From: Sphyrna mokarran
Lineage: Eukaryota
Direction: 5' to 3'
Length of the DNA: 64,000 nt
Assembly: GCA_024679065.1 (NCBI GenBank)
Contig: JAGIQG010000040.1
Coordinates: 10,044,001 to 10,108,000 of the forward strand
Part shown: piece by piece, positions 10,231-63,660 of the stretch
Layout of the letters: the number at the start of each line of letters is the position of its first letter
How positions within the stretch are numbered: the stretch's first letter is position 1
Notes under the pieces: generated by a model
Seen by the model: the letters and a program-made list of their open reading frames with translations, nothing else
Database searches by the model: none
What the model was told of the DNA's origin: nothing
Position numbers and translations under genes: made by a program

Positions 10231-11132
10231 TCAGGATGTATTGAGTTGACGAATTTCAGTAAGGGGGTATTTCAGTAGATCGCTTAGCTGCTGTCTGAAA
10301 TGAGTCTGTGTCACAACATAAATGGCAGTGTTTGTGCAACAACTTGTGAGTTGCAGCATGAAGCCCAATTCCATAACAAAAAGAGGTAAACTTACTGACA
10401 GAGAGCCCAAGCCATACATCCGCATCCATATTGAATAAACCATTAATGTCGACCATAAGACAATGAAATTGCCTGAGATAAGAAACAGTAAAATGATGGA
10501 CTTCCTTCGACTTTCCATCTCTGGGTCACTAGGATTCTTCCCACTGCTGTGAACCCGGAGTCTCCTGCGGGCTCTGCTGCTCACTAAAATGTGTCTGACG
10601 GTGAGAGCATTGAGCAGCAGAATCAGGATGAATGGGACACATGGGGTTATAATGTTGTGGAGGAACTCAATTATTGTCCAGACCAGAGATTCCACAACAT
10701 CCCATGTGAAACCACAAAACCAGGGGTTGTTCACCAGCTGATACCTTTTTAATAACATAAAATACCAGAAAATGTTCTTTAGAAAGCTCAGCACCGTCAC
10801 TGTTCCCAGAACCGCAGCCGCTGATTTTTCAGTGCAATATTTACTTTTCAGTTTGGGGCAGCAAATGGCCACAAATCGATCAAAGGTGAAAGTGATGGTG
10901 AACCAGACAGAACAGTCAGTGGCTGCGTAAAGCAGGACAGCGTGGATGTTACACACGGGGACTGATAGCAGGAAATAAAACTTTCTCCAATAAACAATAG
11001 GAATGTGTCTCAATATCAGGTCGAGGATAACGACCAGCAGATCCCCCGCTGACATGGCCACCAGGTAACGAGTGACACATTTGGACAGACCACAGTTTCT
11101 GCTCATCAGTGTCACAATTGTGATTATGTTCA
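10231..11132 (-). CDS. GPCR-A exon 2 (TM1 end to C-terminus), GPR139/GPR142-like class A GPCR
   Basis: Open 902 nt with hydrophobic helices, the TM3 motif TFDRFVAIC, the TM3/ECL2 cysteines and TM7 TNTAIY. The acceptor CCTGACAG joins exon 1 in phase 1 (..GVP V NIITI..). Spliced product 372 aa. Confidence 0.9.
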
Positions 11133-13609: not shown

Positions 13610-14437
13610 GAGATGCTGGCATTGGACTGGGGTAAGCGCAGTAAAAAGTCTCACAACACCAGGTTAAAGTCCAACAGGTTTGTTTGGCAGCAGCAAGCTT
13701 TTGGAACGCTGCCCTTTCATCGGGTAAGTGGAATTTCTGTTCACAAACAGGGCATATAAAGACACAAACACAATTTACAAAGTAATGGTTGCAACGCGAG
13801 TTTTCAGAGATAACCAAGTCTTAAAGGTACATACAATGTGATTGGAGAGAGGGCCAAGCACAGATTAAAGAGGTGTGTATGTCTCCAGCCGGAACAGTTA
13901 GTGTAATTTTGCAAACTCGGGATTGCTGATTGCCAGGAGTGTTCTCTTCCAGTTGGGGAGTACTTCAGCAGTCATGGACATTCAGCCTGAGATCTTCAGG
14001 TAAGCATTCTCCAGGGCGACCTTCACGACACACGACAGTGCAGAATCACTGAACAGAGACTGATAGCCAAGTTCTACACACCACAGGACGGCAAAAACAG
14101 TGATCTTGTGTTGATGTCACAATATCCGTAACCCCCACGATTTGCCTGGGCTTGCACAATCTCACTAACTGCCCAGAGAGGAGACAATACATGCCTCTTT
14201 AATCTATGCTTTACCCTCTATCCACTCATATTGTTTGTACCTTTAAGACTTGTTTACCTGTAAAGACTCACATTTCAAGGATTATTTTGTTAATTGAGTT
14301 TGTGTCTTTATGTGCGCTGTTTGTAAACACAACTCCTCACTCGTCTAAAGAAGGAATAACATTACGGAAGCTCTTGCTGCCAAATAAACCTGTTGGATTT
14401 TAACCTGATGCTGTGAGAATTCTTACTGTGCTGACCG
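13610..14437. mobile_element. Penelope-like element with inverted terminal arms, in the GPCR-A intron
   Basis: Arms ~13630-13920 and ~14145-14437 are inverted. The middle encodes a GIY-YIG C-terminal remnant (SLPVGEYFSSHGHS..EQRLIAKF) homologous to 54020-54210. Confidence 0.8.
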
Positions 14438-14824
14438 CAATACAAAACCTGCAGTGCCGGTTACCAGGCATCCCCTATGCTTTTGGCTTCTGGAATAACT
14501 TGCAACTTAGAGTTTCTGAGCATTCTGCAATTTAAGCATCTGAGCGTCAAACTGAAACAGATCTTTTAAAAAAAACGGTCAGACACATATTTCCCCCTCC
14601 AACAAGTTTTCACAATTCTTTTACATCTTTCTAAACATCTTCTACATCTTTATAAACTCAAATTCGCAACACAGGCAACATTGGCATAGTGATCAGCGCT
14701 TTGTAGATGTGACAACTCGACAAGGATGCAGCCAAAGCAACAGTCACAAACATGATAGAGAAGATGGCAAGAGTGGCAGAGTTAAACACAAGCTTCATCA
14801 TTAATAATCAGTGAATACACTTAC

Positions 14825-15041
14825 CGGGAACGCCAATAACAGCCAGGATTGGATAGTAAAAATATCGGATCAGTTTCAGCACATATTCGACACGCTTAGC
14901 TGTAGACGGCCAATCCTGAGAAAGTAAATAAATTATCGAGTATAAACTCCTCTCAATTGTTGTAACATTCAGATCTGTGTCCCTCAGATGTTGATCCATT
15001 GTGGGAACATTCAGATCTACCTTTCCTCTATTCAGATCCAT
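14825..15041 (-). CDS. GPCR-A exon 1 (repeat-containing N-terminus and TM1 start)
   Basis: MDLNRGKVDLNVPTMDQHLRDTDLNVTTIERS...YYPILAVIGVP, then the G|GTAAGT donor at 14824. Which in-frame ATG is used is uncertain. Confidence 0.85.
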
Positions 15042-16494
15042 TGCCAAAACTTGCAATTTCTTTCTCCCAATGTTGATCACACGACTCCCTCTTTCTGAAG
15101 CCGCTTATCACCGTGAAACTCCCGCTGACACCGTGCATAACACTGGGAGGACTCCTTTATGAAACATGGATGGGAATGCTCCACAGACACGATTAATACT
15201 GGTTGAATTAATTTCTACATTAATTACAGTCACCGAACAAACAGGTTTAATGTTTTCCATCCAAAATATTTCATACAAATGCATCACAAAAAATTCTGCG
15301 TCTGTTTGAGCGTTGCTGACTGTAGGGATTTTGGAAATATCGGAAGGGCTGACCAGTATCTTTCAATACTGCTGTGAGCATGGGATTGTGGCAAAAAAAA
15401 ATGTGCGAAAGTTCCTCCAACTTGTCCATAAAGGGAGAACGTTTTACACCTGGAAATGTAGAGCTGTCAGCATCCTATCAGTGAAAAGATTGGGGAAAGT
15501 CTGAACCCAAAATCGGATCTAAGACTGAGCAAGGAATCATAAAGGATAGAGGGAACTGGATGAGTTCCAAATGGAAAAAAAAAAGTGAAGAAAAAGAAAA
15601 GGGAGACACATCCCCCTCTTTTACCAACCTCTCGATTGGGGACAGATCCATCCCTGTCTCAACATCCCAAATCCAACAAGACAAAGACAAGAATGCTGCC
15701 AGAAGAAGGGAAAGGAAGAGTCCAAAGCAAAACAAAGGATGGAATCCCACTACTCACTGAATGAACAGCCTCACAGTGGGAAGTTAACCCCCTCTCCAAC
15801 TGCCACAGGGAAAGGAAGTTCTCCTAATCCCCTAGAGCCCAACATAAGCCGACCCTGATATACAATCCTCTCCTCTCAGCCTGCCCCTTCCAACACTACA
15901 TGGACGTGAACACAACCCTCCATCCTTAAAAGGACTCCCCAATCCCCCTTCCTATTCATCATCATATTGCTGAAAAACAGTGTCTCAACAGCCCTTAATT
16001 CCTTAACTGTTTTTTTTAACTATTCTTGCCTTAAAATATTCAATGAGGTAGTCTCAACTGCTTCATTGGGCAGAGAATTCCACAGATTCGCAATCCTTTC
16101 TGTGAAGAAGTCCCTCCTGAACTCAGTTCTGAATTTACTTCCCCTTATTTTGAGGCCACCAGTGTTATCAACTTTCCTAATTCTATCAGCCCCTTCTCGC
16201 ACCCACTATGTTCACCTGCCAGTGATAATAGCTTCCCTCACCAATCAGCCTTTTCCCCAAACCCCCCTCCTCCCAAAAGCCATATCCCACCTCTGTTGCC
16301 ACCTTTAGTGACCTGCTCGCCAGTACATCCATTTTCCTCTGTATGTTGATGTTCCTAATGGTTCTGGCATTTACAGTATAATACTGAGATCTCTTAGCTA
16401 ATCTCAGTGGGTGTGGCATCATTTCGAGATCTGGCTGTTGCTCTATCAGCATAACTTATTCAGTGTATAGTGAGCGCCAAAATGAGCAAGTAAG

Positions 16495-16581
16495 TGACCC
16501 ATCCACTCATCCATCCACCCGCCCATCCACTCATCCATCCACCCACCCATCCACTCATCTATCCATCATCCATCCATCCAT
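16495..16581. repeat. (CCAT/CCAC)n microsatellite
   Basis: Directly visible tetranucleotide repeat. Confidence 0.85.
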
Positions 16582-16838
16582 TTTTACCAATTTTTTTATC
16601 GCAGTCAGGTTTATAACAGTTCGATAATAGCATTGCTCTTTGGATGTGGCGAATTACATGAAATTTAATGAAGTTGAAGATGGTGTGCTCCTTTTTTCAG
16701 GAGGAAACAATACACACGATGGAAATATGAATTGCTGTGGGCGATTGACGGGAATGTTCATTAGAATTGACATTACTCCCTCCTGACCAAATTCGCACAA
16801 ATATTGAGCTACTACTTGCACCTGTTTGCTGTGTGTTC

Positions 16839-16910
16839 GGTTCTGTGGTGTACTGGTGAGAAATCTGGACTTTGAATCCAATGATCCCAGTTCAAATCTT
16901 TGTGGAACCT
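16839..16910 (+). pseudogene. tRNA-Gln (TTG) pseudogene
   Basis: GGTTCTGTGGTGTACTGGTGAGAAATCTGGACTTTGAATCCAATGATCCCAGTTCAAATCTTTGTGGAACCT aligns without gaps to vertebrate tRNA-Gln, but the D, anticodon and T stems carry mismatches. Confidence 0.8.
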
Positions 16911-17279
16911 TGCTTTAATTTGCAAACACAAATGATTGATATGCTGAAGGATGCTTCGTTTAAATTTCTCGGAAAGCACGAATTGTAAAAACAATTTGTC
17001 AGCCAATTCAACTGCTATTACAATGCACATTGCTGAATGTCTGACACCAGATGCCTGCAACGTGAACGTTTTTCATATTTTCGCTATTCCTTAACGCCTC
17101 TGTTAAAAAAGGAAGCAGTTGGTATCATGCAAGAAATTGACTGGTGTTTGGCAATTATTGACTGTGTGTGTGGGCGGGGGGGGGGGGGGGGGGGGGGGTG
17201 TGGGAGGGGGGGAGGAATATGTGGGTGTGTGTGTGTGGGGGGGTGTATATGGATGTGTGTGGACCCACTGTGGCCTACT

Positions 17280-18027
17280 GGACCATTGAGGAAACGGGCA
17301 TGGAGTCTACAGAAATAGGGCAAACAGATAAGGAAGTCATGGAACATTGGCAGATTAAGGAAGAGGTGGTACTGGCTGTCTTGAGACAATTCAAAGTGGA
17401 TAAATCCCCAGGTCCAGACAGGGTACTCCCATGGACTTGAGGGAGGCAAGTAGTGAACTTGCAGGGGCCGTGGCAGTCATATTTAAAATGTCAGTATGCA
17501 CGGGGGAAGTGCCAAATGATTACAGGGTGGCTCATGTTGTTCTATGTTTAAAAACGATTCTAAAAGAAATCCGGGAAATTATAGGCCAGTAAGTTTGACG
17601 TCAGTGGTGGACAAGTTATTGGAAGGTGTGATAAGGGACAGCATCTACAAATATTTGGATAGACAGGGACTCATTAGGGACAGTCAACATGGCTTTGTGC
17701 ATGGTAGGTCATGCTTGATCAATCTGTTAGAGTTGTTCAAGGAAATTACTGAGAAAGTGATTGAAGGGAAGACAGTGAATGTTGTCTAACTGGATTTTAG
17801 CAAAGCTTTTGATAAGTTCCCTCATGGGAGGTTCGTTAGGAAGGTTCAGTCGCTAGATATACATGGGGAGGTAGTAAATTGGATAATACACTGGCTCAAT
17901 GAAAGAAGCCAGAAAGTGGTTGTGGGAGATTGCTTCTCTGAGTGGAGACCTGTGACTATTGGTGTGCCACAGGGATCAGCGTTGGATCTGTTGTTGTTTG
18001 TCATCTATATCAATGATCTGGATGATC
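17280..18027 (+). mobile_element. CR1-type LINE ORF2 RT fragment
   Basis: [45 protein letters not shown]. Confidence 0.9.
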
Positions 18028-18234
18028 ATCCAATGCAATAGTTTAATCGTTTTATTTTTCCTCACAGCCTTTAATTCCATTTGCCCCAAGTGCAAAATCT
18101 AGCCGCCTTTTGAATGCATTCAAAGTTTTGGCATCAACTACTTCCTGTGGCAATTAACTCCACAGGTTTACCAATCTTTTGAAAGATTCCGATCAAGTGT
18201 TGCAAGATTATATTACATTGCTCTCAGACACAGG

Positions 18235-19055
18235 TTTCATGACCTCCCTATTTGTTTGCCCTGCCACTTTCCTTAGTAAATACGGATGCATAAAAACATT
18301 TAATATCTCCCTCATTTCTTTTGGTTCCATACAAAGCTAACCACTCTGATCGTCAAGAGCACCAATTTTATCCCTTACTATCCTTTTTGTTCTTACCTGT
18401 AGAATCTCTTAGGATTATTCTTCACCTTGACTTCCAAAAAACCTCATGATTTCTTTTTGCCCTCCTGATTTCTTTCTTAAGTAGTTTCTTGCATTTTTTA
18501 TACTCCTCAGGCATTTTATTTGTTCCTTGTTGCTTATACATGTCTCTCTTCTTCTTTATCCGATTTTCAATATCCTCAAGAACCAACGTTCATTTTTTTC
18601 TTATTCACTTCGCCTTGAATCCTGACAGGGACATATAAACTCTGCACTCTCAAAAGTTCTCCTTTGAAGGCCTCCCATTACCGATCACATCCTTGCCAGA
18701 GAACAGACTGTCCCAATCTACACTTTTTAGATCCTTTTTCATTTCTTCAAATTTAGCCTTTTTCGAGTTTAGAACCTCAACCCGAGGACCAGATCTACCT
18801 TTAACCATGATCAAATTGAAACTAATGGTGTTAAATCACTGGAACCAAATTGTTCCCCTACACACACTTATGTCACTTGTCCCAACTCATTTCCTAATAG
18901 GAGGTCTAATAATGCATCCTGTCCAGCTGTTATTTCTATATATTGATTTAGAATTCTTTTCCTGAACTCATTTTTTAAACTCTAACCTATCTAGACTTTT
19001 AGTAGTATGGGAGTCCCAATTTCTATGTGGAAAATTAAAATCCCCTGCAATGTAA
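18235..19055 (-). mobile_element. CR1-type LINE ORF2 fragment (endonuclease end and linker)
   Basis: Minus-strand remnants GDFNF, LGSSD.N.ISF, LNSKKA.FEE, RDSTGK.IKRIV; homologous to 30090-30800. It appears inserted into the 42-bp array. Confidence 0.7.
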
Positions 19056-19066
19056 TCGTTTATTTT

Positions 19067-20065
19067 TCTCTCAGATTCTGATCCATTATTGGAACACTGC
19101 AGTCTATTGTTCTCAGACTCTGATCCAGTACATGAACGTTACATTCAATTAATCACAGATTCTCATCAATTTTGGGACATTGCAGTGTGGTGCTCTCAGA
19201 TTCAGATTGAGTATTGGAATATTACAGGATATTGTTCTCAGATCTACAAAAAGAAATCCAGTATTGGAACATTACAGTCAATTGTTTGCTGATACTGATT
19301 CAGTCTATTGTTCTCAGATTCTGTTCAAGTATTGGCTCATTGCATTCCAAAGTTCTCAGATACTGATCGAGTATTGGAACAATGCCGTCTATTGTTCTCA
19401 GTTTCTGATCCATTATTGAATTACTGCAGTCTATTATTCTCAGATTCTGAACCAGTATCGAAACATTTCAGCCTATTATTCTCCGATGCTAATTCTTCTT
19501 TGAAGACAGCGGTCTACGCTTCTCAGATGCTGAATACATTATTGAAATATTGTGGTGTATTGTTCTCAGAATCTCATGCATTATTGGAATATTGCCGTAT
19601 ATTGGTCTCAGACTCCGATGCTGTATTTGATCATTACAGTATATTGTTCCCAGATTCAGATCCATTATCGCAACATTACAGTCTATTGTTCTCAGATTCG
19701 GGTCCATTATAGGAACTTTGTAGTCTATTGCTCTCTGTCCTGATCCACTATTGGAACATTGCAATATATTGTTTGCAGATTCTCATTCAGTATTGAAGCA
19801 TTGCAGTCTCTTGTTCTCAGATTTTGATCCAATATTTGAATAGTACATTTTATTGTCCTCAGATTCTGATCCATTAGTTGAAAGTTACTGTCCATTATTC
19901 TCAGATTCTGATCATGTGTTGGAATATTACACTCCATTGTTCTCAGATACTGATCCAGTATTGGAAGATTGCAGTTTTTTTTTGTTCTCTGATTCTGATC
20001 CATTATTTGAACATTGCAGTCTATTGTTCTCAGATTCCAATTAAGTATTGGAACATTGCAGTTCC
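19067..20065 (-). repeat. Degenerate 42-bp (2 x 21) tandem array, roughly 23 units, homologous to the GPCR N-terminal repeats
   Basis: Plus-strand consensus CTGATCCAGTATTGGAACATTGCAGTCTATTGTTCTCAGATT; the minus strand reads NLRTIDCNVPILDQ. Confidence 0.9.
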
Positions 20066-20300
20066 ATCTGAAGCCTCAGGTTGTACTGTACATAACACTG
20101 AGAGATAGTTCTATCTGAAACATCAGATTGTACTGTACGTAACACTGACAGATCTATCTAAAGCCTCAGATTTTACTGTATATAACATCCTAAACCTCTT
20201 GCAAAGACTGTACTGTACGTAACACTGAGAGATAGTTCTAACCAATGACTAGAGCTCAGACTATATTGTGTGTAATGCTAAGAGATTGATTTGTATGAAG
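20066..20300. repeat. Degenerate ~46-bp tandem array, about 5 units
   Basis: Recurrent CTGAAGCCTCAGATTGTACTGTACRTAACACTGAGAGATAGTTCTAT. Confidence 0.8.
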
Positions 20301-20419
20301 TTCCTCACTAAGGGTATTCAGTACATGAGCTATAGATAAGATCTGCTATAGCCTCGATTTAGCAGACTATGTCAACCCTAATTAATATTAACTTCATCTG
20401 AAACCCACAACCCTGATAA

Positions 20420-21195
20420 CCATAAGGCAGTAAGATACAGGAGCAGAATTAGGACATTAAGCCCATCGAGCTGGCTCCACATTCAAGCATGACTGAGAAG
20501 TTTCCCAAACCCATTCTCCCGTTTTCTCCCCGTAGCCTTTGATCCCTTTATCAGTCAAGAACCTATCTACCTTTTTCTTAAATACGTTCAGAGATTTGAC
20601 CTCTACATCTTGTGTAGCAATGAATTCCACAGACTTGCCACTCCCTGACTGAAGAAATTCCCCCTCATCACAATTCTAAAGTAAGTAAACTTCACAACAG
20701 CTGGTTAAAGTCCTACAGGTTCATTTGAAGTCACAAGCTTTTGGAACACAGCTTCTTCATCAGGTGAGTGGACAACTAGTGTTCTGAGACTTTTTACTGT
20801 GTCCACACCAGTCCCACGCCGGCATCTTCACATGTCAGTTCCAAAGGGTAAACCCTCTCCTCTGAGTCTCTGTTCTCATTCCTCATCTCTCCTGTTATTG
20901 GGAACATCTTCCTCAAGTGCACTCTACCCAGACCTTTCATTATTCTAAAAGTTTCAATGACTTTCTCCTCCTCATCCTTCCAAACTCCATCAAGTACAGA
21001 CACAGAGTCCTTAGACACTCCTCATGTGTCAAGTCTCTCATTCGCCGGATCATTCTTGTGAACATCCTCTGGATCCTGTCCAAGGCCAGCACACCCTTCC
21101 TCAATACGGGGCCGAATGTGGTCTGACCAGAGAATTATTAAATCTCAGCAGTACATCCCTGCTTTTATACTCTAGCCGTCTCAAAATGAACACTA
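20420..21195 (-). mobile_element. CR1-type LINE 3' fragment interrupted by a short Penelope terminal piece (~20683-20835)
   Basis: CR1 tail and coding remnants; the insert matches the Penelope end at 13610-13735. Confidence 0.7.
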
Positions 21196-21656
21196 GCAGA
21201 GGTTATATCGAATGAATATTGGAAATTGTACAGTCTGACCCGCCATTATTTTCAAATTTCCATACCTCCTTACTCTCAACACCCCATCTGAGCTTTAAGA
21301 ATTCTACTTTGGGTGTAAAAAAGTATTGGATTCAAAGGGGTTAAGTGAAGCTGTTTGTTTCGTGACTGTAATTGATTTGAGTCTCCATGGATCTGATTAA
21401 TGTACCTGGAGGGATTTCCCTCTTCTACTAATAAGGGATTCCGTTCAATGTGTTGTCCCATTGAGTTAACGAGAGCAACAGCTCCGACAGTAACAGAGAT
21501 CAACGGCTGCGGAGTGAGAGGGAGGGAGAGGAGAGATCAGAAACTGAAACAATGGATGGGAATCTTCTAACAATGGATAAGAATCTGGGAGAAATAGATT
21601 GGAATGTTCCAACGATGGATCAGAATTTGGGAACAATCAACTGAAACATTTGAACA

Positions 21657-21909
21657 ATGGATCAGAATCTGGGAACAATGAATTGGAATCTTCCAACAAT
21701 CGATCAGAATCTGGGAACAACGGAGTGGAATGTTCCAACAATGGATCAGAACTTGGAAAATGTTCCACCCAAGGACAGGAGTTTATTCATGTGGATTTCT
21801 TTCTATACGGCAGATGATTGGTTGATAACATCAGTTGATCGGATTGAATATCTACTGAAAGTGATTCAATGTTTTTACTATCCCCTCCTGGCGATTATTG
21901 GTATCCCGG
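21657..21909 (+). CDS. GPCR-B exon 1 (repeat-containing N-terminus and TM1 start)
   Basis: MDQNLGTMNWNLPTIDQNLGTTEWNVPTMDQNLE...YYPLLAIIGIP, then the G|GTAAGT donor at 21910 (phase 1). Confidence 0.85.
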
Positions 21910-22399
21910 GTAAGTCCCTGGCTAGAATTCTACTGGCCAACGGCCGTGGGGTTCGGAGCAGGCGAGGGACGGAGCATGGGAAGGTCTGTTGAACATGGGT
22001 GAAACTTTGCAGCTTCGGGAAGAGTAAAGCTGTATTATCCGGTCCCCTGTGTCCTGTTCCTAATTCTAGAAAGGCTGTTTAACTGTATTGATTTGTTTGT
22101 GATTTAATGTACTCAGTTCGTTGCTCTTGTTGTTTTTGTTGAATCTCTGTATCTAGTTGTTATTTTTTTTCAGCAACGGAAAATTGTCTCAGAACCTATG
22201 CGCCATGACGTCTTCTGTGTGTTGTGACCTTCCATAGACATCTGACCTCCAACACTATTCCCTCATGAGTAAAAGATTGAGGCAGAACTCTTTTTACCCT
22301 CTACGTATAACACCAGTTCACTGCTAATCATCCACCCAGTTACCAGGCCTCAGAATCCATTTTAATGGTCATATCTGCACAGCAAGATCTTACAGATGG

Positions 22400-25365
22400 A
22401 GAATATAGAACGTAGAACTGTACAGCACTGTACAGACCCTTCGGCCCTCAATGTTGTGCCGAGCTATGTCCAAACACTGATCAAGCTATGCCATGCCCTA
22501 ACATTCTGGCATATTCCCTGTGTCCATCTAATAATGTTTGGAAGTTCCTAAAGTGTCCAACTCCATTATCACAGCAGGCAGTGCATTCCACACCCCAAAC
22601 ACTCTCTGAGTAAAGATTCTGAGTAAAGAATCTACCTGGGACATATTGCCTATATCTCTCACCATGAACCTTATAGTTATGCCCTACGAATACCAGCTGC
22701 ATCCACCCGAGGAAAAAGTCGTTGCACATCCACGCTATCTACCCTCTCATCATCTTATAAACTTCTATTAAATCGCCTCTCATCCTTTCCTGCTCAAAAG
22801 AGAAAAGCACCAGCTCCCTCAACCTTCCCTCATAAGACCCAAGACATCATCATCACCATATCCATGGTAGAGAAATGATCGGAAAACAATCTGAGGACAG
22901 AATTAATCTCCACTTCGAGAGGTAAGTACTTATGAATATTAGTCAGCATGGCTTTGTCTGACAATGTGCTGGAATATATTGAGGAGGTGACTGTATGAGT
23001 AGATGAGGGAAGTTCAGTCATGTAGTCTATATGGACTTCAGAAAAGCTTTTAACAAATTCGGCACGGGAGACTGAACAAGGAAGTGATATCCGATTGGAA
23101 CCGGTGCAACTTGGTAAATAACATTCACAGTTGGCTGAGTGGCATGAAACAGAGGGTAATGGTCGAAGGTTGCTTTTCTGACCGCAAGCCTATGTCCAGT
23201 GGGGTTGCACAGGGATCGATGCTGGGTTCCTTGCTGTTTGTTGTGTACTGCGATGGTCTAGACTTGAATGTGTGAGGTATGATCAATAAGTTCACAGATG
23301 GTACAAAGATTGATTGAAGAGGAAAGCCTTAGATTACAAGAATCATAGAATCACAGTGCAGAAGGAGTGCAGTGCTAGCCACATGCAACCGTGCTGAGGA
23401 AATTGAAAAGCTCGGCAAATGTAACTTACATCTGAAAAATGTCAGGTGATGCATTTGGGACAACTATCAGGACAAGGAAACACAGTGTGTCCAGTCGAGT
23501 GTGGGGAACTGCAGGGGACTGGAATGAATTTGGGGTGCATTTATGCAGATTTCTAAAAGCAGTAAGACTGGTAGATGAGGTGGTTAAGACGACATGTAGG
23601 ATATTTCCCTTTAGCAGCGGCAGCATAGAATATACGACGGTGGAGAAGAGATTCACCAGGATGCGGCCTGAGCTGGAGAGTATCAGCTATGAGGAGAGAC
23701 TGGTTAGGTTGGGATCTTTTACCTTAGAGCAGAGACGGCTGCAGGGGGAGCGGGTGTAGTGTGTGGTGGTGAGGAGCACTTTCAAATGGGTGAGGGGAGA
23801 GGGAAGCTGAGTGATACGTACAAAATTTGTGGCACATAGAGAGGAAGAAAACTTTTCCCCTTTAGGAGAGGTTTGAAAAGCCAGAGGGGCATGGTAAAGG
23901 ACAGATTTCTGTGTGGATCTGAAGAAAAATGTTTCCATCCACAAAGTGATGAGATCTGCAGCTCAGGGCCTGAAGCAATGGTAGAAGCTGGAACAACCAC
24001 AAGAAGCATTTAGATCAGCAATTCAAACGCCAGAACAGACAAGGCTGTGAATCCAATGCTGGAAAATGGGTTTCGATTGCATAGGTCAGATCAGGCATAA
24101 TGGGCCAAAGGACCCCATTTTTGTGCTGTTAAAACTCGATGACTGTTAGACTATTCTCTGTAGTGGTCCATCACTTGCAGCTTTCACAGTGCTGACTGGG
24201 ACACCAATAACATAACAAACCTATGTGTTTGAGAATGCACAATTGCAGCCAGCAGTGAGCTTCCTGGTCTGAGAGAGGCATCTGTCAGCTATCTGCTGTT
24301 GCACTCGCTTCAACATAACAGCTGCCCCCAGGTAGTCTGGGGATCACAGCTCTTTGTGAGCAGCCCCTGACCGAATATTGCCACCACTTGCCACTTGGAC
24401 CTATCACCACCCCCCCTTCCCCCACATCAATTGCACGCAGAGAGCCGAGAGACCCTCTTCCTCCCAACTGCACATGCAGAGAGGCAGCGAGGTCCCCGCC
24501 TTATCCACTGTGCATGCAGAGCTGCAGAGGGACACCCATCCCTGCCTCACCTATCGTGTGCAGGTTGGCTGTAAGACTCCTCTCTTCATCAATCTCATGC
24601 AGACCAAAAGCGGGCCTGCACTCCCGACTTCAACACTTAACGGAAAGTTTCTGAGGAACGTAAAAGAACACAAAGTACTTGGGGTTCACATCCACAGATA
24701 TCTGAAGGTTGCCACTCAAGTGGACAGAACTATGAAGAAGCTTATAGTGTGTTAGCGTTTATTAACAGGGGTTTGAGTTTAAGGGCCGTGGGATTATGTT
24801 GCAGCTACACATAACCTTTGTGAGACCACATTTGGAATATTGTGTTCAGTTCTGGTCACCTCACTATTAGAAGAATTGTCTCATTGTAGAGGCTGGAGAG
24901 GATCTTTACCAGGATGCTGCCTGGTTTGGAGGGTATGTCTTATGAGGAAAGGTCGAGGGAGTTGGGGCTTTTCAATTTAGAGTGGAGGAGTATGAGAGGC
25001 AACTTAATAGAGGTTTATAAGGTGATGAGGGGTAGGTAGAGATAGTGGACGTGCAGAGAGTATTTCCTCAGATGGATGTAGCTGTTATTAGGGGACATAC
25101 TATAACATTCATAATGGGAGATATAGAAGGAATACCCAAGGTAGATTCTTCAATCAGAGAGTGGATGGGGTGTGGAATGCACTGCCTGTTGTGATAGTGG
25201 AGTCGGACACTTTAAGAACTTTCAAGCGGTTATTGGATAGGCACATGGAGCACACCAGAATGATAGGGAGTGGGATAGCTTGATCTTGGAACTGGACATA
25301 GCTTGGAACAACATCGAGGGCTGAAGGGCCTGTACTGTGCTGTACTCTTGTATGTTTGATGTTCT
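22400..25365. mobile_element. CR1-type LINE fragments in the GPCR-B intron (minus ~22400-22840; plus ~22870-24140 and ~24630-25365)
   Basis: ORF2 motifs (KQRVMVEG, GV.QGSMLG, RFTRM, FF.QRV..VWNALP) and CR1 tails. Confidence 0.75.
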
Positions 25366-26123: not shown

Positions 26124-27025
26124 TGAATATAATCACGATTGTGACACTGATGAGCAGAAACTGTGGTCTATCCAAATGTGTCACTCGTTATCTGGTGGCC
26201 ATGTCAGTGGGGGATCTGCTGGTCGTTATCCTCGACCTGATATTGAGACACATTCCCATTGTCTACAAGGAACAATTTTCTTTCGTGCCCTCGGTCCCCG
26301 TGTGTAACATCCACGCTGTCCTGCTTTATGCAGCCACTGACTGTTCTGTCTGGTTCACCGTCACTTTCACCTTTGATCGATTTGTGGCCATTTGCTGCCC
26401 CAAACTGAAAAGTAAATATTGCACTGAAAAATCAGCGGCTATGGTTCTGGGAACAGTGACGGTGCTGAGCTGTTTAAAGAATGTTCTGTGGTATTTTATG
26501 TTTTTAAATGGATATCGGCTGGTGAACGACCCCTGGTTTTGTGATTTCACAATTGGTGTTGTGTTTTCTCCAATCTGGTTAACAATCGAGATCCTCCATC
26601 ACATTCTAACCCCGTGTGTCCCATTCGTCCTGATTCTGGTGCTCAATGCTTTCACTGTCAGACACATTTTAGTGAGCAGCAGAGCCCGCAGGAGACTCCG
26701 AGCACACAGCAGTGGGGAGAATGCCAGAGACCCAGAGATGGAGAGTCGTAGGAAATCCATCATTTTACTGTTTGTTATCTCAGCCAATTTCATCCTCTTA
26801 TGGTCGATGTTAATGGTGTATTCTATATGGAAACAAATGGTTTTTTTGGGCTATCCTTCGGTAGCATTTGATCTTTTTGTAATGGAATTGGGGTTCATGC
26901 TTCAACTCACAAGTTGCTGCACAAACACTGCCGTTTATGCTGTCACACAGACTCAATTCAGACAGCAGCTAAGCAATCTACTGAAATATCCCCTTACTGC
27001 CATTCTTCACCTCATTTCCCCCTGA
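26124..27025 (+). CDS. GPCR-B exon 2, GPR139/GPR142-like class A GPCR
   Basis: Open 902 nt, colinear with GPCR-A exon 2; acceptor CGTGACAG; TFDRFVAIC and TNTAVY motifs. Spliced product 384 aa from ATG 21657. Confidence 0.9.
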
Positions 27026-29069: not shown

Positions 29070-32000
29070 CATTTGTTTTAATACAAGAAGTGTAACAGGT
29101 TAGGCAGATGGACTTAGAGCTTGGATTTGTACTTAGAACTAAGATGTTGTAACTCTTATCTTTGATTAAGGGAAGGAGAGGAATGGCAGCTTAACGTACA
29201 AGGATACAGATGTTTCAAGAAGGATAGACAGGGGTGTAACAGGAGAGGGGCATTTTCTTGATTGCTACGGACAATATCACAGCAATATGAACAGAGGGAT
29301 CTTGGAGTATATGTGCATAGATCCCTGAAAGTTGACAATCAAGTCGATAAGGTTGTTAAGAAGGCATACGGAGTCTTGGATTTTATTGGTAGGGGGATTG
29401 AATTTCGGAGCCGCAAAGTCATGTTGCAACTGTACAAAACTCTTGTGCGGCCGCACTTGGAGTATTGTGTGCAGTTCTGGTCCCTACATTATAAGAAAGA
29501 TGTGAAGGCATTGGAGAGGGTGCAGAGGAGGTTTACCAGGATGTTGCCTGGTATGGGGGGCAGGTCTTATGAGGAGAGGCTGAGGGATAGGGTGGACAGT
29601 GATAGCCTTTTTCCTCGGATGGAGAAAGCTAGCACGAGGGGACATAGCTTTAAATTAAGGGGTGGTAGTTATAGGACGGATGTCAGAGGTAGGTTCTTTA
29701 CCCAGAGGGTGGTAAGGGTATGGAATGCCCTGCCTACTGCAGTTGTAGATGCGCCAAGTTCGGGGGCGTTTAAGAGGTCAGTGGATAGGTTTATGGATGA
29801 AAAGGGAATCGTTTAGGTTAGAGGGTCATTGCTTTTTCTTAATTGGTCGGCGCAACATCGAGGGCCAAAGGGGCTGTTCTTCGCTGTAGTGTTCTATGTT
29901 CTGCAGGAGGCCTACACCTACTGTACTTCCGAGGGCTCATACAAAGAGGCAATATGGGTAAAGCTCAGGAATAGGAAGGGTGTAGTCACAATAGATTGAC
30001 TATTGGCCTCCCAACAACCAGCGGGAGATAGCGGAACAGATAGAGATTTTGACAGGCTGTTAAAGTAACAGGGTTGTTGTTGTTGTTGGAGATTTAACTT
30101 CCCCAAAATTGACTTGGATTCATTTTGTGCTCAGTGCATGGGTTGGGCAGAGTTTGTAAGTAGCAGCCAGGAGGGCTTCTTGAAATATTATATAGATAGT
30201 CCAACTAGGGAAATAGCTGTACTGGACCTGATATTGGGGAATCAGCCTGGCCAATGGTCGACATTTCAGTAGGGGAGCAGATAGAGAACAGTGGCCACAA
30301 CTCAGTAAGCTTTAAGATATAGATGTTTAAAGATAAATGTAGTCCACAAGTGAAGATCCTAAATAGGGGGAAAGCTAATTACAACAATATTAGGCAGGAA
30401 CTGAAGTATGTAGATTGGGACCAGATGTTTGAGGGCAAATCAACATCTGGCACATGGGAGGCTTTCAAATGTAAGTTGATCGGAATTCAGGACTAGCATA
30501 AACCTGTAAAGATGAAGGATAGTCATGGCAAATTTCGGGAACATTGTATAACAAGAACTATTTTGAGCCTAGTCAAAGAAAAGATGGAAGAATTTGTCTA
30601 GTCTAGGAAGACACAGAACAATTATGGAATACAAGGAAATTAAAAAGAAACTTAAGCAAAGATTAAGGAGGGCTAAAAGGGGTCACGAAAATTTTTTGGC
30701 CGCAGAATGGAGGAAAATCCCAAGGCGTTTTAAACATATACAAAGGGCAAGAGGTTAGCCAGGGAGAGGGTTGACACACTCGAGGACAGGTGAGGGATTC
30801 TACATGTGGAACCATGTAAATGGTGAGGTATTAAATATTTTACATTGGTATTCACTAAAGAGAATGACTTAGTGCACGATGAATCTGGGCAATCTGGGAA
30901 TTGATGTGTAAACAGTTTGAGTCATGTTGAGATGAAAATGGAGGAGATATTGGTGTTCTTGAGAAACATTAAAGTAGACAAGTCCCCAGAGCCTGATGTA
31001 ATATACTGCAGAATACTGAGAGCGGCACGGATGAAATTGCTGGGACCTTGAGAGAAATCTTTGTATCATCCCTGGCTATAGGGGAGGAGAACGAGAATTG
31101 GAGAACAGCTGATTTTTGTTCAGGAAGAATAGCAACCATAATCCAGGTAAGAACAGGTCAGTGAGCTTACGTCAATGGTCGGGACAATATTTAGAGAATT
31201 GTTCGAAACGGAAGTTAATTCAACTTGGAACTAAGTGGATGTATTACTGAGAGGCAATATGACTTTTTTTGAAGACCAGATCGTGTGTCAATAACGTGAT
31301 CGAGTTTTTCGAGGAAGTGACGAAAATGATTGATGAGGATAGGGCAATGGATATTATCTACATGAACTCCAATAAACCCTCTCACAGAGTCTCTTATGGC
31401 AGACTGGTACAGAAGGTGCAGTAAAGTGATGTCAGAAGTCAACTGGCTGGGTGGTTGAAGAACGGGCTCTGTCATAGAAAACAGAGTGTAGCAAAGTGTG
31501 TTTCTGAATGTTGTGATGTGGCTCAGGGATCGGTCCTGGTCGCTTTGTTGTTTGCCATACATATTATAAATGATTTGAAGGAAATTGGGGTATCGGTTTG
31601 GAGATAATCGGCACACGGGGGGAAAAGTTGGAAAGCAGAGTATTCTGATTTAAGGTAAATGGTGACAGTGGCAAAAATAAGGAATTTGTTGAATTGATGA
31701 GTAATTTGCATATTTAATATATTGCACAGGAAAGCTACATGATTAGCTTTGTTCAGCAGAATGTGAAGAGAAAAATGGGAATGATGAAAACGCTATGAAA
31801 GGAAATATAGACTCCGAGGGACTTGAGTGAATATGGGTATAAATCATTCATGATACAAGACAGGTTGAGACAGCGGCAAGCAAAAAATGTGAATATTTTT
31901 TGTCTATTGGGAAAAATAATACAGCAGCAAGGAAGTTGTGCTAAATTTGCAGAAAACATTTGGAAAATCATTAACCGAAAAATATGGTCCAATTTTCGGC

Positions 32001-43019: not shown

Positions 43020-45180
43020 GTTGTACCTCGTAACTAGGATTCGATGTGGCCTACCCCCCCAAAAAATCCCTTATTTATCCCTGCCCTTTCGCTGTTTGAC
43101 TGGACAGTGTGGAGGAATTTTTACTCTGCATCTAAACTGACGTGCCTGCCCTTTGAATGTTTAATCCGTACCTAGTCTCTGCTGTATCTGAACTAGTATA
43201 TTTTATGGGACTGTCTGAAGAGCCCTTCCCTCCACTGAACACCAATTCAAACTTGTCTCCCTAATCTCTGAAGGGAAAATGCAGAAGCAGTTTTACCTAA
43301 AATATATTTCCTCGCCTGTATGCCTTGTTCTGCTTCTAGACAGTCGAGAAGTAGGGGAATGTTTTCCAGGAATGTTTGATTTTGATAATGAGAGGTAGAT
43401 TCACTTTGTATCTAACTCATGCAATCCCTGCCTTGGAAGTGCTATATTTGGCAATGCAGGGGGTATTTTACCCCATGTTACTCCTGTCCTGTGAATCTTT
43501 GATGAGGCTGTAGGCCGTTTCTCCAAATTTCATGGGGACTAAACCGGTCTCTTTATTAGACAGTAATTTTACCCCGTGTCAGCTGCTATTATATAAGGTA
43601 ATGCCTTCGTTTATGTTGCACTAGACCCTATCTCTACACATATTAAACAAGATACTTCCTGTGATTATACCAAATTAGACCCTGTCCCTGTTTATATTAT
43701 TTTTCAACATGTTTCAGTTTATATCAAACTAGATGCTGTATCCGTTTCTATCAATTTAGCCTGTATCTGTTTTATTAAACTAAATGGAGTCTTATTTCTG
43801 CACTTGACCCTTTCCACGTTTATATTTCATTGGACGTGGTCGCTGTTTTTACTACACTGGACAATTTCAGTACTGAGGAAAGTGTTTGCGGAGATATTAT
43901 TCTCTGCATCCTCCTAAACATGGAACGCCATGAGGTCTTGGATACCTGGAAAAGAAACAGTGCTATCTGAAATCTACTTCTGCTAACTACATTGAAAATG
44001 GATACCAAGACCTGTATATCATGCACTGTCAACACAGAACAAAGGACAAAGAAAGTTACAGCAGAGGAACAGGCTCTTCAACCCTGCACTGACCAAATAT
44101 TGTCGATCCAATATCCCCGTTTCAGAATCTTGCCAAATATATTATCTCTTCTTCAAGTAGAACCGCGGGGTAATGCAGGATTAATACAATCAGAGGTGCA
44201 GGAATAACACTGACACAGTCTAATGAAATAGGTACAGCGTCAGGATCAAATTTTACACAACCAGAAAGGGTGCCTAGTGCAATATAAACTGACATTATTA
44301 ACAGGGGCAGACTCTATTTTAACATAATTGAGGCTCTGGTCAAACAAAATTGAAGTGGCTTAGCCCCGAGTGTCACGTGGGGACAGTGAAAGGTCAAAGC
44401 TGATGTTTTCAGTGACACTCACATACCATGCAAGAAATATTTCAAATATTTATGACGATGACAGGAGACCTGAGACTGTGCCTTGTGCAGTTTTACTAGA
44501 TACAACGGTTGGAAGATATAAAATGAAACAGAGCCCAATAATTAATGATACTGGACCTAGACTTCTTTAGACTGAGACAGAGAGAAGTTCATTCGTAATA
44601 ATTACTAATACAGGACAGATACAGATATAAACTGAGACAAAGCCCAGTGTATTTGCAATGATTACTGATATAGTGCCTAGGCTGATGTAGACTGAAATAG
44701 AATTCAGTTTATTTGAAATAATTACTGATATAGGACTTAGACTGATACGCACTGAGATACAGACAATGCTGCATTTAAAAGGTATCGCAAAATGCAATTA
44801 TAACTGAGAATTGGCACAGTCTTAAATAGACAAATAAATGGACTGATGCAGCGTTAATGTAAATATTTTAGTTTATCAAAATATAATGAACTATTAGCAT
44901 AATAACTGTTACATCTATAATGTATGAAGGCAGTTGGTCCAATTTAGTTTACAGTGGGAAATGTTCTGAGACAGCAATAATTGAGACAAGTTCTCTTGTC
45001 AAATAAGTAGATACATGGTCAGTGCAACTATAATTTAGAAATTATAAAACAAGCAGGGCCTATACCTAACATATAAGCACGTGATATTGACCGAGTACGG
45101 AAAAAACTTAGATATGACCTCCTAGAATGTGATCCAGGCACAGTATGATGTAATACAGACAGAATCAGAAGAGAGTTTAA
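43020..45180. repeat. Old degenerate satellites (~65-70 bp family 43020-43520; ~27-bp family 43560-43870 and, reversed, 44160-45180)
   Basis: Recurrent TTTACTCTGTATCTAAC / CCTG.CCT..GA.TGTTTGA and ATATAAACTGAGACAG motifs; clear 60-bp period at 44571, 44631, 44691, 44751. Confidence 0.55.
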
Positions 45181-48300: not shown

Positions 48301-48429
48301 GTGAGTATTATTTTATTGTCCAAATCTCTCACTGTCACTATCTCCCTGTTCGTCTATCGCTGAAATGTTTCAGAAACAGCAATCATTTCACCAGGATTAA
48401 TCCTCGGGCTTTTTGATATATTTTTATAG

Positions 48430-48734
48430 TTGTCCAGTCGGAGATTGTGTTGACTCAGCCAGAGGCAGAGACCGTGCATCCAGGAGAATCCCTGAAACTG
48501 ACCTGTAAAACCAGCGGCTTCGATTTTAGCAATACTTGGATGACCTGGATCCGACAGGTTCCTGGACAGGGACTGGAATGGCTGGTTGACTACCATAGTT
48601 CATCCAGCAACAACTACGCTCCAGCAATTAAGGATCGATTTACTGCGTACAAAGATACTTCAAACAATATCTTGTCTTTGGACATGACGAGCCTGAAGAC
48701 CGAAGACACCGCCATCTATTACTGTGCAAAAGAC
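48430..48734 (+). CDS. IGHV: IgM VH exon, unrearranged and open
   Basis: [44 protein letters not shown] with canonical Cys/Trp/Cys; acceptor TTTATAG. Confidence 0.97.
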
Positions 48735-48773
48735 CACAGCGAGAGGAACAAGGGCTGCACCCGAACAACGACA
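48735..48773 (+). other. VH 3' RSS, 23-bp spacer
   Basis: Heptamer CACAGCG, 23 nt, nonamer ACAACGACA (degenerate). Confidence 0.85.
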
Positions 48774-49119
48774 GGTCGAGAGGGAATTCAGCAACTTCCA
48801 ACGTAACCTTAAGGTAAATATCTGTTTTAAATGTAATATTAACGACAGTGATCAGAACCAAACCATAATCTCTTTTTAAAAGTAACAAAGAAATCAGTTA
48901 ATAGTACACTTTAACAAACTTACCGATATTAATGGGGTGAGCTTTTCACCGACTTTATATTTATTGTAGTTTCAGCAAGTTCAGCGCTGGATATATTAAC
49001 TGTTTTAATATTTCTGGTAGATTGTGTTATATGAATTGTTGCCTACATTATAAATTAAAACAGAACTAATGTCCCATTTGAAATGAATATTGAGCGGTAG
49101 TACTGAACGGAGTGAGTGC

Positions 49120-59095: not shown

Positions 59096-59228
59096 CTCAC
59101 AACCCATATCCCTTCATCCCTTTAACACCAAGAGCTATATCTAATATAGAAACCTATTTGTTACAATATGTTTGACTAAATAAACACAGAAAAGAGTCTA
59201 ACTTGTTCAATTGGCTATTCTTTCCCAG

Positions 59229-59528
59229 TGACACCATCTCCACCCACTCTCTACAGCCTGGTCTCCTCCTGTCAGCAACAAAATTCTGACGGCTCCATCA
59301 CCTATGGATGTTTGGCGATGGATTACTCTCCAGATGTCTCCAAACTGACCTGGAAGAATAATGGGCAGCAGGTCAACTCTGGGTTTAAGATTTACCCGTC
59401 AGTGAGAAACACGAAGGGAACCTACACCCTGAGCAGCCAGTTAACCATCAGCGACTCATCGGGAGAATGCCCCAAAATTGACTGTGAGGTTCAACACAGA
59501 AGCTCAGTCAAGAGCGTTGAAATGCCAT
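59229..59528 (+). CDS. IGHM: IgM Cmu1 exon
   Basis: TPSPPTLYSLVSSC..YGCLAMDYSP..WK..YTLSSQLTI..CEVQH; AG and GTAAGT boundaries in phase 1. Confidence 0.96.
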
Positions 59529-59737
59529 GTAAGTGTTGTGCAGCTTGTGTAAAAAGAAACACGATGGTTAATATGAAGAGCCTTGGGTTCAATTCATTTA
59601 ATTGACGTCCATAATCTGGCTCTCTGGATTAGTCTGGTTAGTGTCTACTGAATGCAAATGAGTAACTAATGTAGACAAACGTTTATTTGATCCACATCTT
59701 CTGCAGGAAATGACTAATATGCTTCCTTTTTCTGAAG

Positions 59738-60052
59738 GTCCTATGCCTGATATTCATCCAACTGTTATCCTCACCGTGAGTTCCAGTGAAGAAATCTCAA
59801 GCGACAAACTTGCAACCATCGTCTGTTCAGTCATCGATTTCCATCCAAAGCCAATGACGGTGAAGTGGCTGAAGAATGGACAACCCATGGATTCAGGAAT
59901 TGTCACCTCTCCCGCCTGTGAAATGAACAGGAACTTCTCGGCCAGCAGTCGGCTGACAGTCTCTGCTGGGGAATGGTTCAGCAAAGCGGTCTATACCTGC
60001 CAGGTCACTCATCAAGGATTCACCCAGAGTCAGAACATCAGTGGATCTGTAG
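59738..60052 (+). CDS. IGHM: IgM Cmu2 exon
   Basis: [44 protein letters not shown]; phase 1 boundaries. Confidence 0.96.
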
Positions 60053-60319
60053 GTAAGAGACTCAAACAGAGGACAAAATATATCATTCCGATGTTAATTG
60101 AAATTAGGAATCTATTACACTTCGTACAACACATAGAACAACTTCTAAGTTATTGCCAAGCAGTTTGCTGCATTAGGACACTGCCTCGTTCAGCATTTCA
60201 TCAGAAACACAATTTCTTGTTATTCCTTCATGAGGTGTGCATTTATTTCCCAAATCCGAGGGCACTTAAGTGTCAAACACGTTGCTCTGAATCTGGAGCC
60301 ACATGCCTGCCAGGCCAGG

Positions 60320-60470
60320 TCTGCCAGACCACAACACTGCATTTGCCTGACAAAGACGAAAGTCGAAAGCTTGCAGATTTACTATCAAATAAATCGGTTG
60401 GATTCAAAAAAGGTGTTGCCAGACTGTTACTGAATTTACCCCAGTCCAACGCCGCCATCTCTACATCAAG
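60320..60470 (+). mobile_element. Penelope terminal fragment in the Cmu2-Cmu3 intron
   Basis: Matches 54410-54485 and the reverse of 52935-53050. Confidence 0.7.
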
Positions 60471-60818
60471 ATTTGAGAGACAGTAGGGATCAGACTGTTT
60501 CACAGTCACAGCATAGGAGTAAAATATTGGAAAGTGCACCCACCCTATTTATAAACCAACGGTCAGTGCTTTTTCCCTGAGTTCAGGGTAGCGTATTTGT
60601 TTGGGAATTCTGCAATGCTAATTCAAGGAAATGGTACCACTGCCACAACATTTAATACAGGGAATAATTCATAGAGCAAGTTGGTTTTCTATTCGCCATG
60701 GAAGGTGAAAGATGATAGTTAGAGACTGATATATTGAAGGCGACTTCGTCTCCTTCAGGCTGAAGACTGTTGTCCTGCGGAAGGGGAACTCGAGTTCATT
60801 TTCATTTTTCATTCACAG

Positions 60819-61127
60819 ATCCTTCCCAGTGCTATGATTCCACAGTGATGATACAGCCACCACCAATAGAGCAGGTCTTACTGGAGGCGACCGTGACTTT
60901 AACCTGCATCATTTCCAATGCTCCTTATGGAGTTAACGTGTCCTGGATCCAAGACAGGAAGTATGTGAAATCAGAGATTGCCGAAATTCCAGGAGCGGAT
61001 CCTGACAGCGTGATGACCAAATTAAACACCTCGACACAAGCCTGGCTGAGCGCGGTTGTGTTTGAGTGCGTGGTGAGCCATCAGGATCTGCCGACTCCTT
61101 TAAAAACATCTACCCACAAGGAAACAG
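60819..61127 (+). CDS. IGHM: IgM Cmu3 exon
   Basis: [43 protein letters not shown]; phase 1 boundaries. Confidence 0.96.
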
Positions 61128-61149
61128 GTGAGCTGAGAGATTGAAACAA

Positions 61150-63660
61150 TAAATGTAGGGTCAACGGCAGCGTTCTGAGGAATGTGGAGGAACAGAGAGT
61201 TCTTGAGGTTCATATTCACGAATCTCTGAAGGTTGCCACTCAAGTGAATAGAGCCGTGAAGAAGGCTTATTGTGTGTTAGTGTTTAGAAACAGGGAGTTT
61301 GAGTTTAAGAGCTGTGGGGTTATGCTGCAACTATATCGGAACCACATTTGGAATATTGTGCGCAGTTCTGGTCACCTCACTACAAGAAGGATGTGGAAGC
61401 ATTGGAGAGAGTGCAGAGGAGATTTACCAGGATGCTGTCTGGTTTGGAAAGTAGGTCTTATGAGGAAAGGTTGAGGGAGCTTTTCTCTTTAGAGCGGAGG
61501 AGGATGAGAGGCGACTTAATAGACGTTTATAAGATGTTGAGAGGGATTGATAGAGTGGACGTGCAGAGACTATTTCCTCGGGTGGATGTAGCTGTTACTA
61601 GGGGGCATAACTATAAGGTTCATGGTGGGAGATATAGGAGGGATGTCCGAGGTAGATTCTTCATTCAGAGAGTGGTTGGGGTATGGAATGCACTGCCTGC
61701 TATGACAATGGAGTCGGACACTTTAGGAACTTTCAAACAATTATTGGATGGGCTCATGGAGCACAACAGAATGCTAGGGAGTGTGATAGATTGATCTTGG
61801 AATTGGACATAGCTCAGCACAACATTGAGGGCCCAAGGGCCTGTATTCTGCTGGACTGTTCTATGTTTCTATGTAGTTGCATCACTGTGTCTATCTCTAG
61901 TGGAAATGTACTAGTCAATATTTAGTATTCAGTGATTAATGGTCTGCCCTGAACTAAAAGATTCTGGGCCGATCGATATTTTACATGGAAGTTTGATGTG
62001 TTGATGAATGAAAAAGTGAACTGAAGGCGATGTTATTGGGTTTATATCAAAGAAGAAGCGAGGAGCCTGATGTGGAGCATAAGAAAAACAGAAAACCAAA
62101 AAGAAAAGTAGATCAGTTGGGCCGAATGACCTGATTCTGTGCTGTAAACTTTCTGAAACTTTCCAGTCCGCCCCCCGAGTTATTTGAGAAAATGATTGTG
62201 TCCATCTCTGTTCCAAGCTGGAAGTCAAAAATGGAAACGCTTAAAATGGAAACGCTGTTTAAAAAACGTAGCCGACAGAAGGCAGAGAATTATAGGCCCG
62301 TTAATTTAACGTCTGTAGTCGGAAAAATGCTTGAATCCGTCATCAAAGAAGAAATAGAGAGACACCTAGAAAAGAACGTTTGAGCAAGCAGACGCAGCAC
62401 GGATTCGTTAAAGGTGTTTGAAGAATTGATTGGATTTCTATGAGGATGTGACTCGTGCGGTAGGTAGAGGGAAATTGGTGGATGTGGTGTTTTTAAATTT
62501 CAAGAAGGCCTTTGATAAGGTGCCTCACAAAAGGTTGTTGCAAAAAGTTTGGGTGCCATGAGTTGGGGTAAGGTATTAGCGTGGATAGTGGATGGTTGTC
62601 TAATAGGAAGCAGAGAGTAAGACTCAATGGCTACAATTCTGGTTGGCAGTTGGTGACTAGTGGAGTCCCGCAGGGATTGGTGCTGGGGCCTCAACTGTTT
62701 ACCATATACGTAGATGATCTGGAGGAAGGCTCTGAGTGTAGGTCACGAAATTTGATGATGACACGAAGATGAGTGGACAAGTAAATTGTGTGGAGTGTGT
62801 GGAAAGTCTGCAGAGAGATCTGGATGGATGGAGTGAGTGGGCGAGCATCTGGCAAATGGAGTATAATGTTAGCAAGTGTGAGGTTATCCACTTTGGTAGA
62901 AATAATGGTAGGAGGGATTATTATTTAAATGGTGAAAAGCTGCAGCATGCTCCGGTGCAGAGGGACCTGGGGGCCCTTGTACATGAATCGCAAAATCCCA
63001 GTCTGCAGGTGCAGAAGGTGATCAAGAAGGTGAATGGAATGTTGGCCTTTATAGGTAGGGGGATAGAACACAAAAACAGAGAGGTTTTGTTGCAACTGTA
63101 CAGGTCATTGGTGAGGCCGCAGATAGAGTATTGTGTGCAGTTTTGGTCGCCGCATTTGAGGCCTTGAAGGGAGTGCAGAGAAGGTTCAGTAGGCTGATAC
63201 CAGAGATGAGACGGTTAGCCTATGAGGAGAGATTGAGTAGACTAAGTTTGTACTCGTTGGAGTTTAGAAGGTTGAGTAGGGATCTTATAGAGACATATAA
63301 GATAATGGAAGAGATGGATAAGGTAGAGGTAGAGAAATTCTTCCCGCTTAGAAAGGATAGCAGAACTAGAGAGCACAGCGTCAAAATAAGGGGGGAGGGC
63401 GGTTTAGATTGGAGTTGAGGAGGAACATCTTCACTCAAAAGATGGTCAATCTTTGGAATCCTCTGCCCTTTGAAATGGTGGGGGCTACCTTGCTGAATAT
63501 ATTTAAGTCATGGGTAGATACGTTTCTGACAGATAGGGGAATTAAGGGGAAAAAGCGGGAAAATGGGACTGATCCACTTCAGATCAACCATGATCTTATT
63601 GAATGGCTGGGCAGGCTCGAGGGTCTAGACGGCCTACTCTGGCTCCTATTTCTTATGTTG
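61150..63660 (+). mobile_element. Two CR1-type LINE fragments in the Cmu3-Cmu4 intron (~61150-61870, ~62250-63660)
   Basis: ORF2 motifs [36 protein letters not shown] and CR1 tails. Confidence 0.88.

Follow-up and report, generated by a model that had tools for sequence, protein, structure and literature searches.

A degenerate tandem array of about 24 repeat units, situated between two head-to-head receptor genes in a 64,000-nt stretch of shark DNA (the window), is likely what remains of the 5' end of a third paralog, one of a local group of shark GPR139-like genes and oriented like the first of the two receptors, GPCR-A. This reading is preferred because the 5' flank of the array best matches the promoter-proximal DNA of GPCR-A. 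Judging from its sequence, the array is most likely without function today.

The two flanking 7tm_1 genes, GPCR-A and GPCR-B, are on the evidence of their predicted products intact members of the shark GPR139-like family. GT/AG splice sites are present in both, and the predicted spliced ORFs comprise 372 aa without an internal stop for GPCR-A (ATG at 15041) and 384 aa, open from ATG 21657, for GPCR-B. Their nearest relative is P0112, a gene model from Mustelus (tree support of 0.98 among 67 aligned sequences), to which they show 83% identity in the 7TM part. The second exons of GPCR-A and GPCR-B share 87% DNA identity, with a dN of 0.11 and a dS of 0.23 (both lineages), giving a ratio of about 0.46 that is high for a receptor pair. 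The divergent interval between the two genes measures 6.5 kb and contains the array (Table 1).

Table 1. Coordinates of the receptor exons, the array and the neighboring repeat and LINE features in the window
Feature	Position	Strand	Description
GPCR-A exon 2	10231..11132	-	Rest of 7TM
GPCR-A exon 1	14825..15041	-	Complete; codes for about 2 degenerate units, a unique tail and the first half of TM1; has a GT donor
LINE reverse-transcriptase fragment	17547..18025	+	On the opposite strand; matches 62259-62726; cut at 18025-18026
LINE ORF2 3'-end fragment	18025..18183	-	Beyond the lone unit; matches 29703-29810, 63436-63549 and 20523-20643 (ORF2 C-terminal pieces)
Lone array-type unit	18184..18231	-	Between two LINE fragments
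LINE ORF2 internal fragment	18235..19076	-	Covers the endonuclease end and the region after it; many stops; abuts the array 3' end
Degenerate tandem array	19069..20062	-	About 24 copies of a 42-nt unit with homology to the 14-codon repeat of the receptor N-terminus; 8 indels
47-nt repeat	20060..20233	-	3-4 copies, on the 5' side of the array
GPCR-B exon 1	21552..21909	+	About 5 units; open ORF starts at ATG 21657
GPCR-B exon 2	26124..27025	+	7tm_1

The first units of GPCR-B lie in a 30-codon frame (21552-21659, plus strand) that is closed by two in-frame TGA codons (21642 and 21651); these cut off the first units, and the open receptor frame begins anew at 21657, on the Met of a unit further on. 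An X1 contig covers this region (21437-21682) with 0 differences. The double TGA reflects either pseudogenization at an early stage or an N-terminus that has been shortened, with an ORF upstream of it. Most units of the family contain an in-frame Met, and therefore upstream units could be lost to stops without the death of the gene; GPCR-B appears to be a living gene that has lost its upstream units to stops.

Elsewhere in the window, a V-like ORF at 48417-48806 and C-like ORFs at 59180-61144 (plus strand) are what we take, from their motifs, to be immunoglobulin heavy-chain-like exons; this Ig-like cluster lies about 21 kb beyond GPCR-B, and the receptor pair adjoins it. A tandem repeat with a 60-nt unit (about 3.5 copies, 70% match) occupies 44537-44759, upstream of the V-like exon, and ARAGORN called a tRNA-Asn at 221-294 on the minus strand. 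The Rfam search of 14000-23000 at the gathering score yielded nothing beyond a borderline tRNA-like hit at 16839-16910 (plus strand), which ARAGORN does not call and which is possibly a tRNA-derived repeat.

Gene models of the shark GPR139-like family carry a 14-residue N-terminal repeat in 0-9 copies. Across 97 of the 101 N-termini (four without the YYP anchor were left out), the number of units was 0 in two proteins, 1 in 30, 2 in 28, 3 in 19, 4 in 12, 5 in four, 8 in one (P0097 of Pristiophorus, which has a complete 7TM) and 9 in one (P0042, Stegostoma XP_059505611), with the counting method underestimating a 13-residue variant in P0069. All members of the family are gene models rather than proven proteins. 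The family set comprises P0042, P0069 and P0097-P0183, whose units mostly have a single NxT sequon and a single Met each; the 13-residue variant of the repeat is found in the Scyliorhinus canicula models P0069 and P0118. RefSeq and UniRef assign such shark models the automatic name 'probable G-protein coupled receptor 139', and GPCR-A and GPCR-B are like them in the two-exon 7tm_1 structure and in the 14-residue unit. The nearest solved structure to P0097 is GPR139 (7VUG, E of 8e-9), a distant one, and P0001 gave no match to true GPR139 at 1e-8. The family is therefore named GPR139-like here, for a predicted distant relationship that is not one of orthology to GPR139.

The homology between the array unit and the receptor unit is real. 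TRF reported 42-nt arrays at 19069-19304 and 19301-20062, and a global alignment gave a count of 23.9 units, 21 of which could be placed ungapped (with a threshold of 24/42 relative to a seed unit). These 21 units show 82% identity to their consensus and 69% to each other, and their relationship is near star-like, with an identity of 0.69 both between adjacent units and overall. The consensus matches the units of GPCR-B at 26-35 of 42 positions and a unit of GPCR-A at 27/42. The best GPCR-B exon-1 unit, at 35/42, exceeds all 2000 dinucleotide shuffles compared with that exon (mean 20.6, maximum 27), as well as the maximum of 28 reached by 300 shuffles compared with the remainder of the window. 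Additionally, a phmmer search with the stop-free frame of the array (102 aa) recovered family gene models with a best E of 5e-24; five of the 56 proteins matched were family receptors, all with the Trp-type unit. The sole Cys-rich protein among the matches, P0088, was rejected as unrelated. Several claims of the preliminary description are borne out by these data: its consensus and peptide for the array unit were recovered, the pair of array and GPCR-B units that it aligned does agree at 33/42, and the array is oriented as GPCR-A on the minus strand, 4 kb from the GPCR-A ATG at 15041.

The units of the array and of the receptors differ in a manner that indicates the direction of descent. At unit position 7, Trp is found in 189/228 family units and Cys in 1/228, whereas the array has Trp in 0/21 and Cys in 15/21; an NxS/T sequon is present in 149/228 family units vs. 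3/21 array units. Pro occupies position 10 in 11/21 array units, compared with 38 Pro vs. 155 Thr in the family, and is present in GPCR-A, GPCR-B and P0112; this residue putatively links the array to GPCR-A, GPCR-B and the Mustelus and carpet-shark members. The Trp/NxT unit occurs in gene models of Heptranchias, Pristiophorus, Heterodontus, Rhincodon, Stegostoma, Scyliorhinus, Carcharodon and Mustelus, with the Trp type spread over squalomorph and galeomorph sharks. Since the Trp unit is widespread and the Cys and Ile of the array are local, the array states are derived and the direction runs from receptor to array.

The opposite direction, in which a satellite donated the ectodomain repeats to the receptors, was one of two options in the preliminary description and is now disfavored. 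It would accommodate an array with more units than any coding relative (about 24, over twice the family maximum of 9) and an array that looks older than the split between GPCR-A and GPCR-B. The latter is suggested by a divergence from the consensus of 0.21, which is greater than half of the GPCR-A/GPCR-B dS of 0.23, unless GPCR-A and GPCR-B were homogenized; with the same exception, the array is no simple by-product of their duplication. However, the coding unit is spread across shark gene models, the Cys and Ile of the array are rare, local and derived states, and the array is low-copy, with a low summed depth in X1. A donor satellite is therefore extremely improbable.

The 5' flank of the array provides the connection with a receptor gene. 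Positions 20085-20123 match GPCR-A upstream DNA (15130-15167) at 30/39. When the flank was compared with the window on both strands, cut into 828 tiles of 300 nt, the GPCR-A upstream tile was the best with a score of 19 (next 15, mean 9.6), and 0/1000 shuffles reached this score, for a match that is short and was spotted before being tested. The matched 39 nt are situated at the end of a stretch common to the upstream DNA of GPCR-A and GPCR-B; the score of the flank against GPCR-B was 9, equal to chance, and the upstream motif common to both genes was not found near the array. The order of flank and then repeats on the same strand is that of a native exon 1. The 47-mer also resembles the 42-mer (p of 0.0015), and sharks presumably have dispersed repeats with a core similar to that of the 47-mer. 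On the strength of the GPCR-A match, the 47-nt repeat is probably an amplified piece of the promoter-proximal or 5'-UTR segment of the dead paralog. Since a unit of 47 nt is incompatible with coding, the local amplification was non-coding at least in part.

Non-coding amplification is also the essence of another explanation, according to which a receptor unit, displaced as a fragment by duplication or conversion, expanded as a stand-alone minisatellite, possibly dispersed with sister arrays, and was never part of an exon. The lack of a tail, donor and exon 2 is in keeping with such an offshoot, as is a founder unit that was without the conserved Trp and mostly without the NxT sequon. Contig joints in X1 (19096 to 19853, with go-backs at 20142-20153) and in X4 hint at a small number of related arrays or runs of the 47-mer elsewhere in these genomes, which keeps the offshoot explanation alive. 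It is nevertheless unlikely in view of the receptor-like 5' flank on the right strand and side and of the position of the array within the receptor cluster, both of which agree with a third-paralog relic.

The array decays neutrally, without trace of coding selection. Single-base codon changes from the consensus amount to 22 synonymous, 85 non-synonymous and 2 stops, compared with 28, 78 and 2.6 expected, respectively; pairwise pS and pN are 0.28 and 0.30, and 6/8 indels shift the frame. The exon-1 tail (YYP/TM1) is missing, with an HMM built from 97 tails matching only GPCR-A and GPCR-B in the window. Likewise, no third exon 2 was found in the window and no GT[AG]AG donor on the minus strand of 18900-20100. 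The array therefore does not present the open ATG-to-donor frame, the Trp 7 and the NxT sequon that characterize a functional GPR139-like exon 1.

These observations make it highly improbable that the array serves as a live alternative exon 1, which would be joined by splicing at 11132 to exon 2 of GPCR-A and would encode a long Cys-rich ectodomain. The strand is that of GPCR-A, and the first seven units are stop-free, with the longest ATG-led ORF of the array encoding 92 aa from ATG 20003; stops are infrequent in this frame in any case. Against a live exon, GPCR-A has its own exon 1, which codes for the first half of TM1, and the array combines frameshifts and stops with the lack of a consensus donor and tail. 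On the antisense strand, an ORF of 137 aa (19299-19712, with an acceptor-like stretch ahead at 19076) was also considered and rejected as coding: none of 542 candidates of 75-240 aa was a homolog at E 0.01, no Pfam family reached the cut-off, and the changes in its frame were 17 synonymous vs. 83 non-synonymous.

The region 3' of the array, where an exon tail would be expected, is a mosaic of three LINE fragments. Read from the array 3' end on the minus strand, the order is the internal ORF2 fragment (19076-18235), the lone array-type unit, the ORF2 3'-end fragment and the opposite-strand reverse-transcriptase fragment. The internal fragment, which we take from its motifs to be CR1, matches a copy at 30189-30866 in translation and by tblastx, and its summed depth is high. 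Loose contig ends lie at 18026 in X1, X2 and X3. The lone unit noted in the preliminary description is genuine, with 29/42 to the consensus and a blastn match of 81% over 48 nt (E of 3e-6) to the array unit at 19903-19950. The accompanying proposal that a CR1 inserted into the array does not, in its simple form, fit the layout, in which the 3' end of a LINE on this strand is found past the lone unit. A single insertion would put the LINE 3' end before the displaced unit, and one insertion is therefore insufficient; the layout needs either a deletion together with two insertions, or a single element in which an internal deletion was patched by an array unit. As a candidate template, the array unit at 19908-19949 has 5 derived states in common with the lone unit (permutation p of 0.29). 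Since deletions have occurred at the expected site of the exon tail, the missing tail says little, and the LINE mosaic can explain its absence.

Matching sequences from other genomes bear on the age and copy number of the array. In X1, a 1198-nt contig spans 18768-19965 with 1 difference, though X1 may be the source sample of the window and hence not independent. Among other organisms, X2 covers 18892-19165 and 19229-19516, X3 covers 19960-20373 and X4 covers 18884-19231, with the junction between LINE and array bridged in X2 and X4. The presence of pieces in three other organisms, together with the bridged junction, indicates that the arrangement is old. The summed depth in X1, which is not a copy number, was 94-308 in array-only bins, compared with 72 for a unique contig and 1510-3512 for GPCR-B exon 1 and its flank; the low value over the array speaks against a young, high-copy satellite. 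The high copy number and homogenized units of a satellite were not found, given 69% pairwise identity and a low depth at a likeness of at least 80%, a level at which older, diverged copies are missed. The label of satellite in the preliminary description is therefore too strong, and the array behaves like a low-copy, degenerate minisatellite.

Persistence of parts of the array in four organisms, within the 6.5-kb divergent interval, could be read as a sign that a relic has since taken on a role between the head-to-head genes, as a cis-regulatory element or as non-coding transcribed DNA. Divergences of this size would, however, be expected to leave such parts in place, and the array has gaps in X2 and X4. 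With changes that look neutral, near star-like units and no Rfam match over the array, co-option is very unlikely.

For the preferred third-paralog reading, the proposed history would begin with a founder unit carrying Trp-to-Cys and Thr-to-Ile changes, from which slippage or unequal crossing-over would have multiplied the units, with a 47-nt piece of the flank on the 5' side amplified as well. The tail of exon 1, the donor and exon 2 would then have been lost through LINE insertions and deletions. That the expansion to about 24 units took place while the gene still made protein is doubtful. It is quite unlikely that a class A GPCR with an ectodomain of about 330 residues and about 24 Cys repeats was once expressed from the paralog, and that an intact ortholog survives in a related shark.

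Combined, these results support the core of the other option in the preliminary description, a decayed exon 1 of a third paralog: the 5' flank is receptor-like and on the right strand and side, and paralogs with 8-9 units exist. The very long Cys-bearing ectodomain that was attached to it is not upheld, with no coding selection in the array and no intact paralog exceeding 9 units or of the Cys type. No such relative was found among the 97 N-termini, the phmmer matches and 36 long homologs (525-2000 aa); the latter contain at most 2 xDQ motifs each, and in 26/36 the extra length consists of unrelated or LINE-like sequence or of fusions. Metagenome scans with the sequence pattern and with the exon-2 protein gave no matches.

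The array resembles other systems in part. Unprocessed pseudogene relics in tandem clusters are 5'-end fragments of paralogs that show neutral decay, disruption by LINEs and an in-cluster position. The array is like them in its homology to a coding part, its native-order flank match to GPCR-A, and its disabling mutations and neutral change; no remains of a tail, donor or exon 2 were found, and their expected site is taken up by LINE fragments with cut junctions. It differs in that the survivor is almost only the amplified repeat with a short, separately amplified 5' flank. Compared with the shark GPR139-like models, the array has about 24 units vs. 0-9, Cys in place of Trp, and no tail or 7TM. 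The repeats of GP1BA and SELPLG form glycosylated stalks. Coding VNTRs in surface proteins are described for GP1BA (39-nt unit), SELPLG and DRD4 in the available portion of PMC1273636. As in these proteins, the units of the shark family are in-frame and tandem, and a variable number alters protein length; in the sharks the number varies between paralogs and species, and the array, unlike those VNTRs, is no longer coding.

No description of the family or its repeat was found in the main texts of the literature searched (supplements may list the family among expanded shark clusters), and the repeat is unmentioned in the available portions of PMC1273636, PMC8455134, PMC5207463 and bioRxiv 10.1101/2025.06.08.657570. 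As a trace of genes gained and lost in a receptor cluster, the array is of minor importance. Of greater use is the family that emerged from this study, a large set of receptors with a tunable 14-residue N-terminal repeat, whose Met-bearing, putatively stop-tolerant units provide a testable model for change in ectodomain length.
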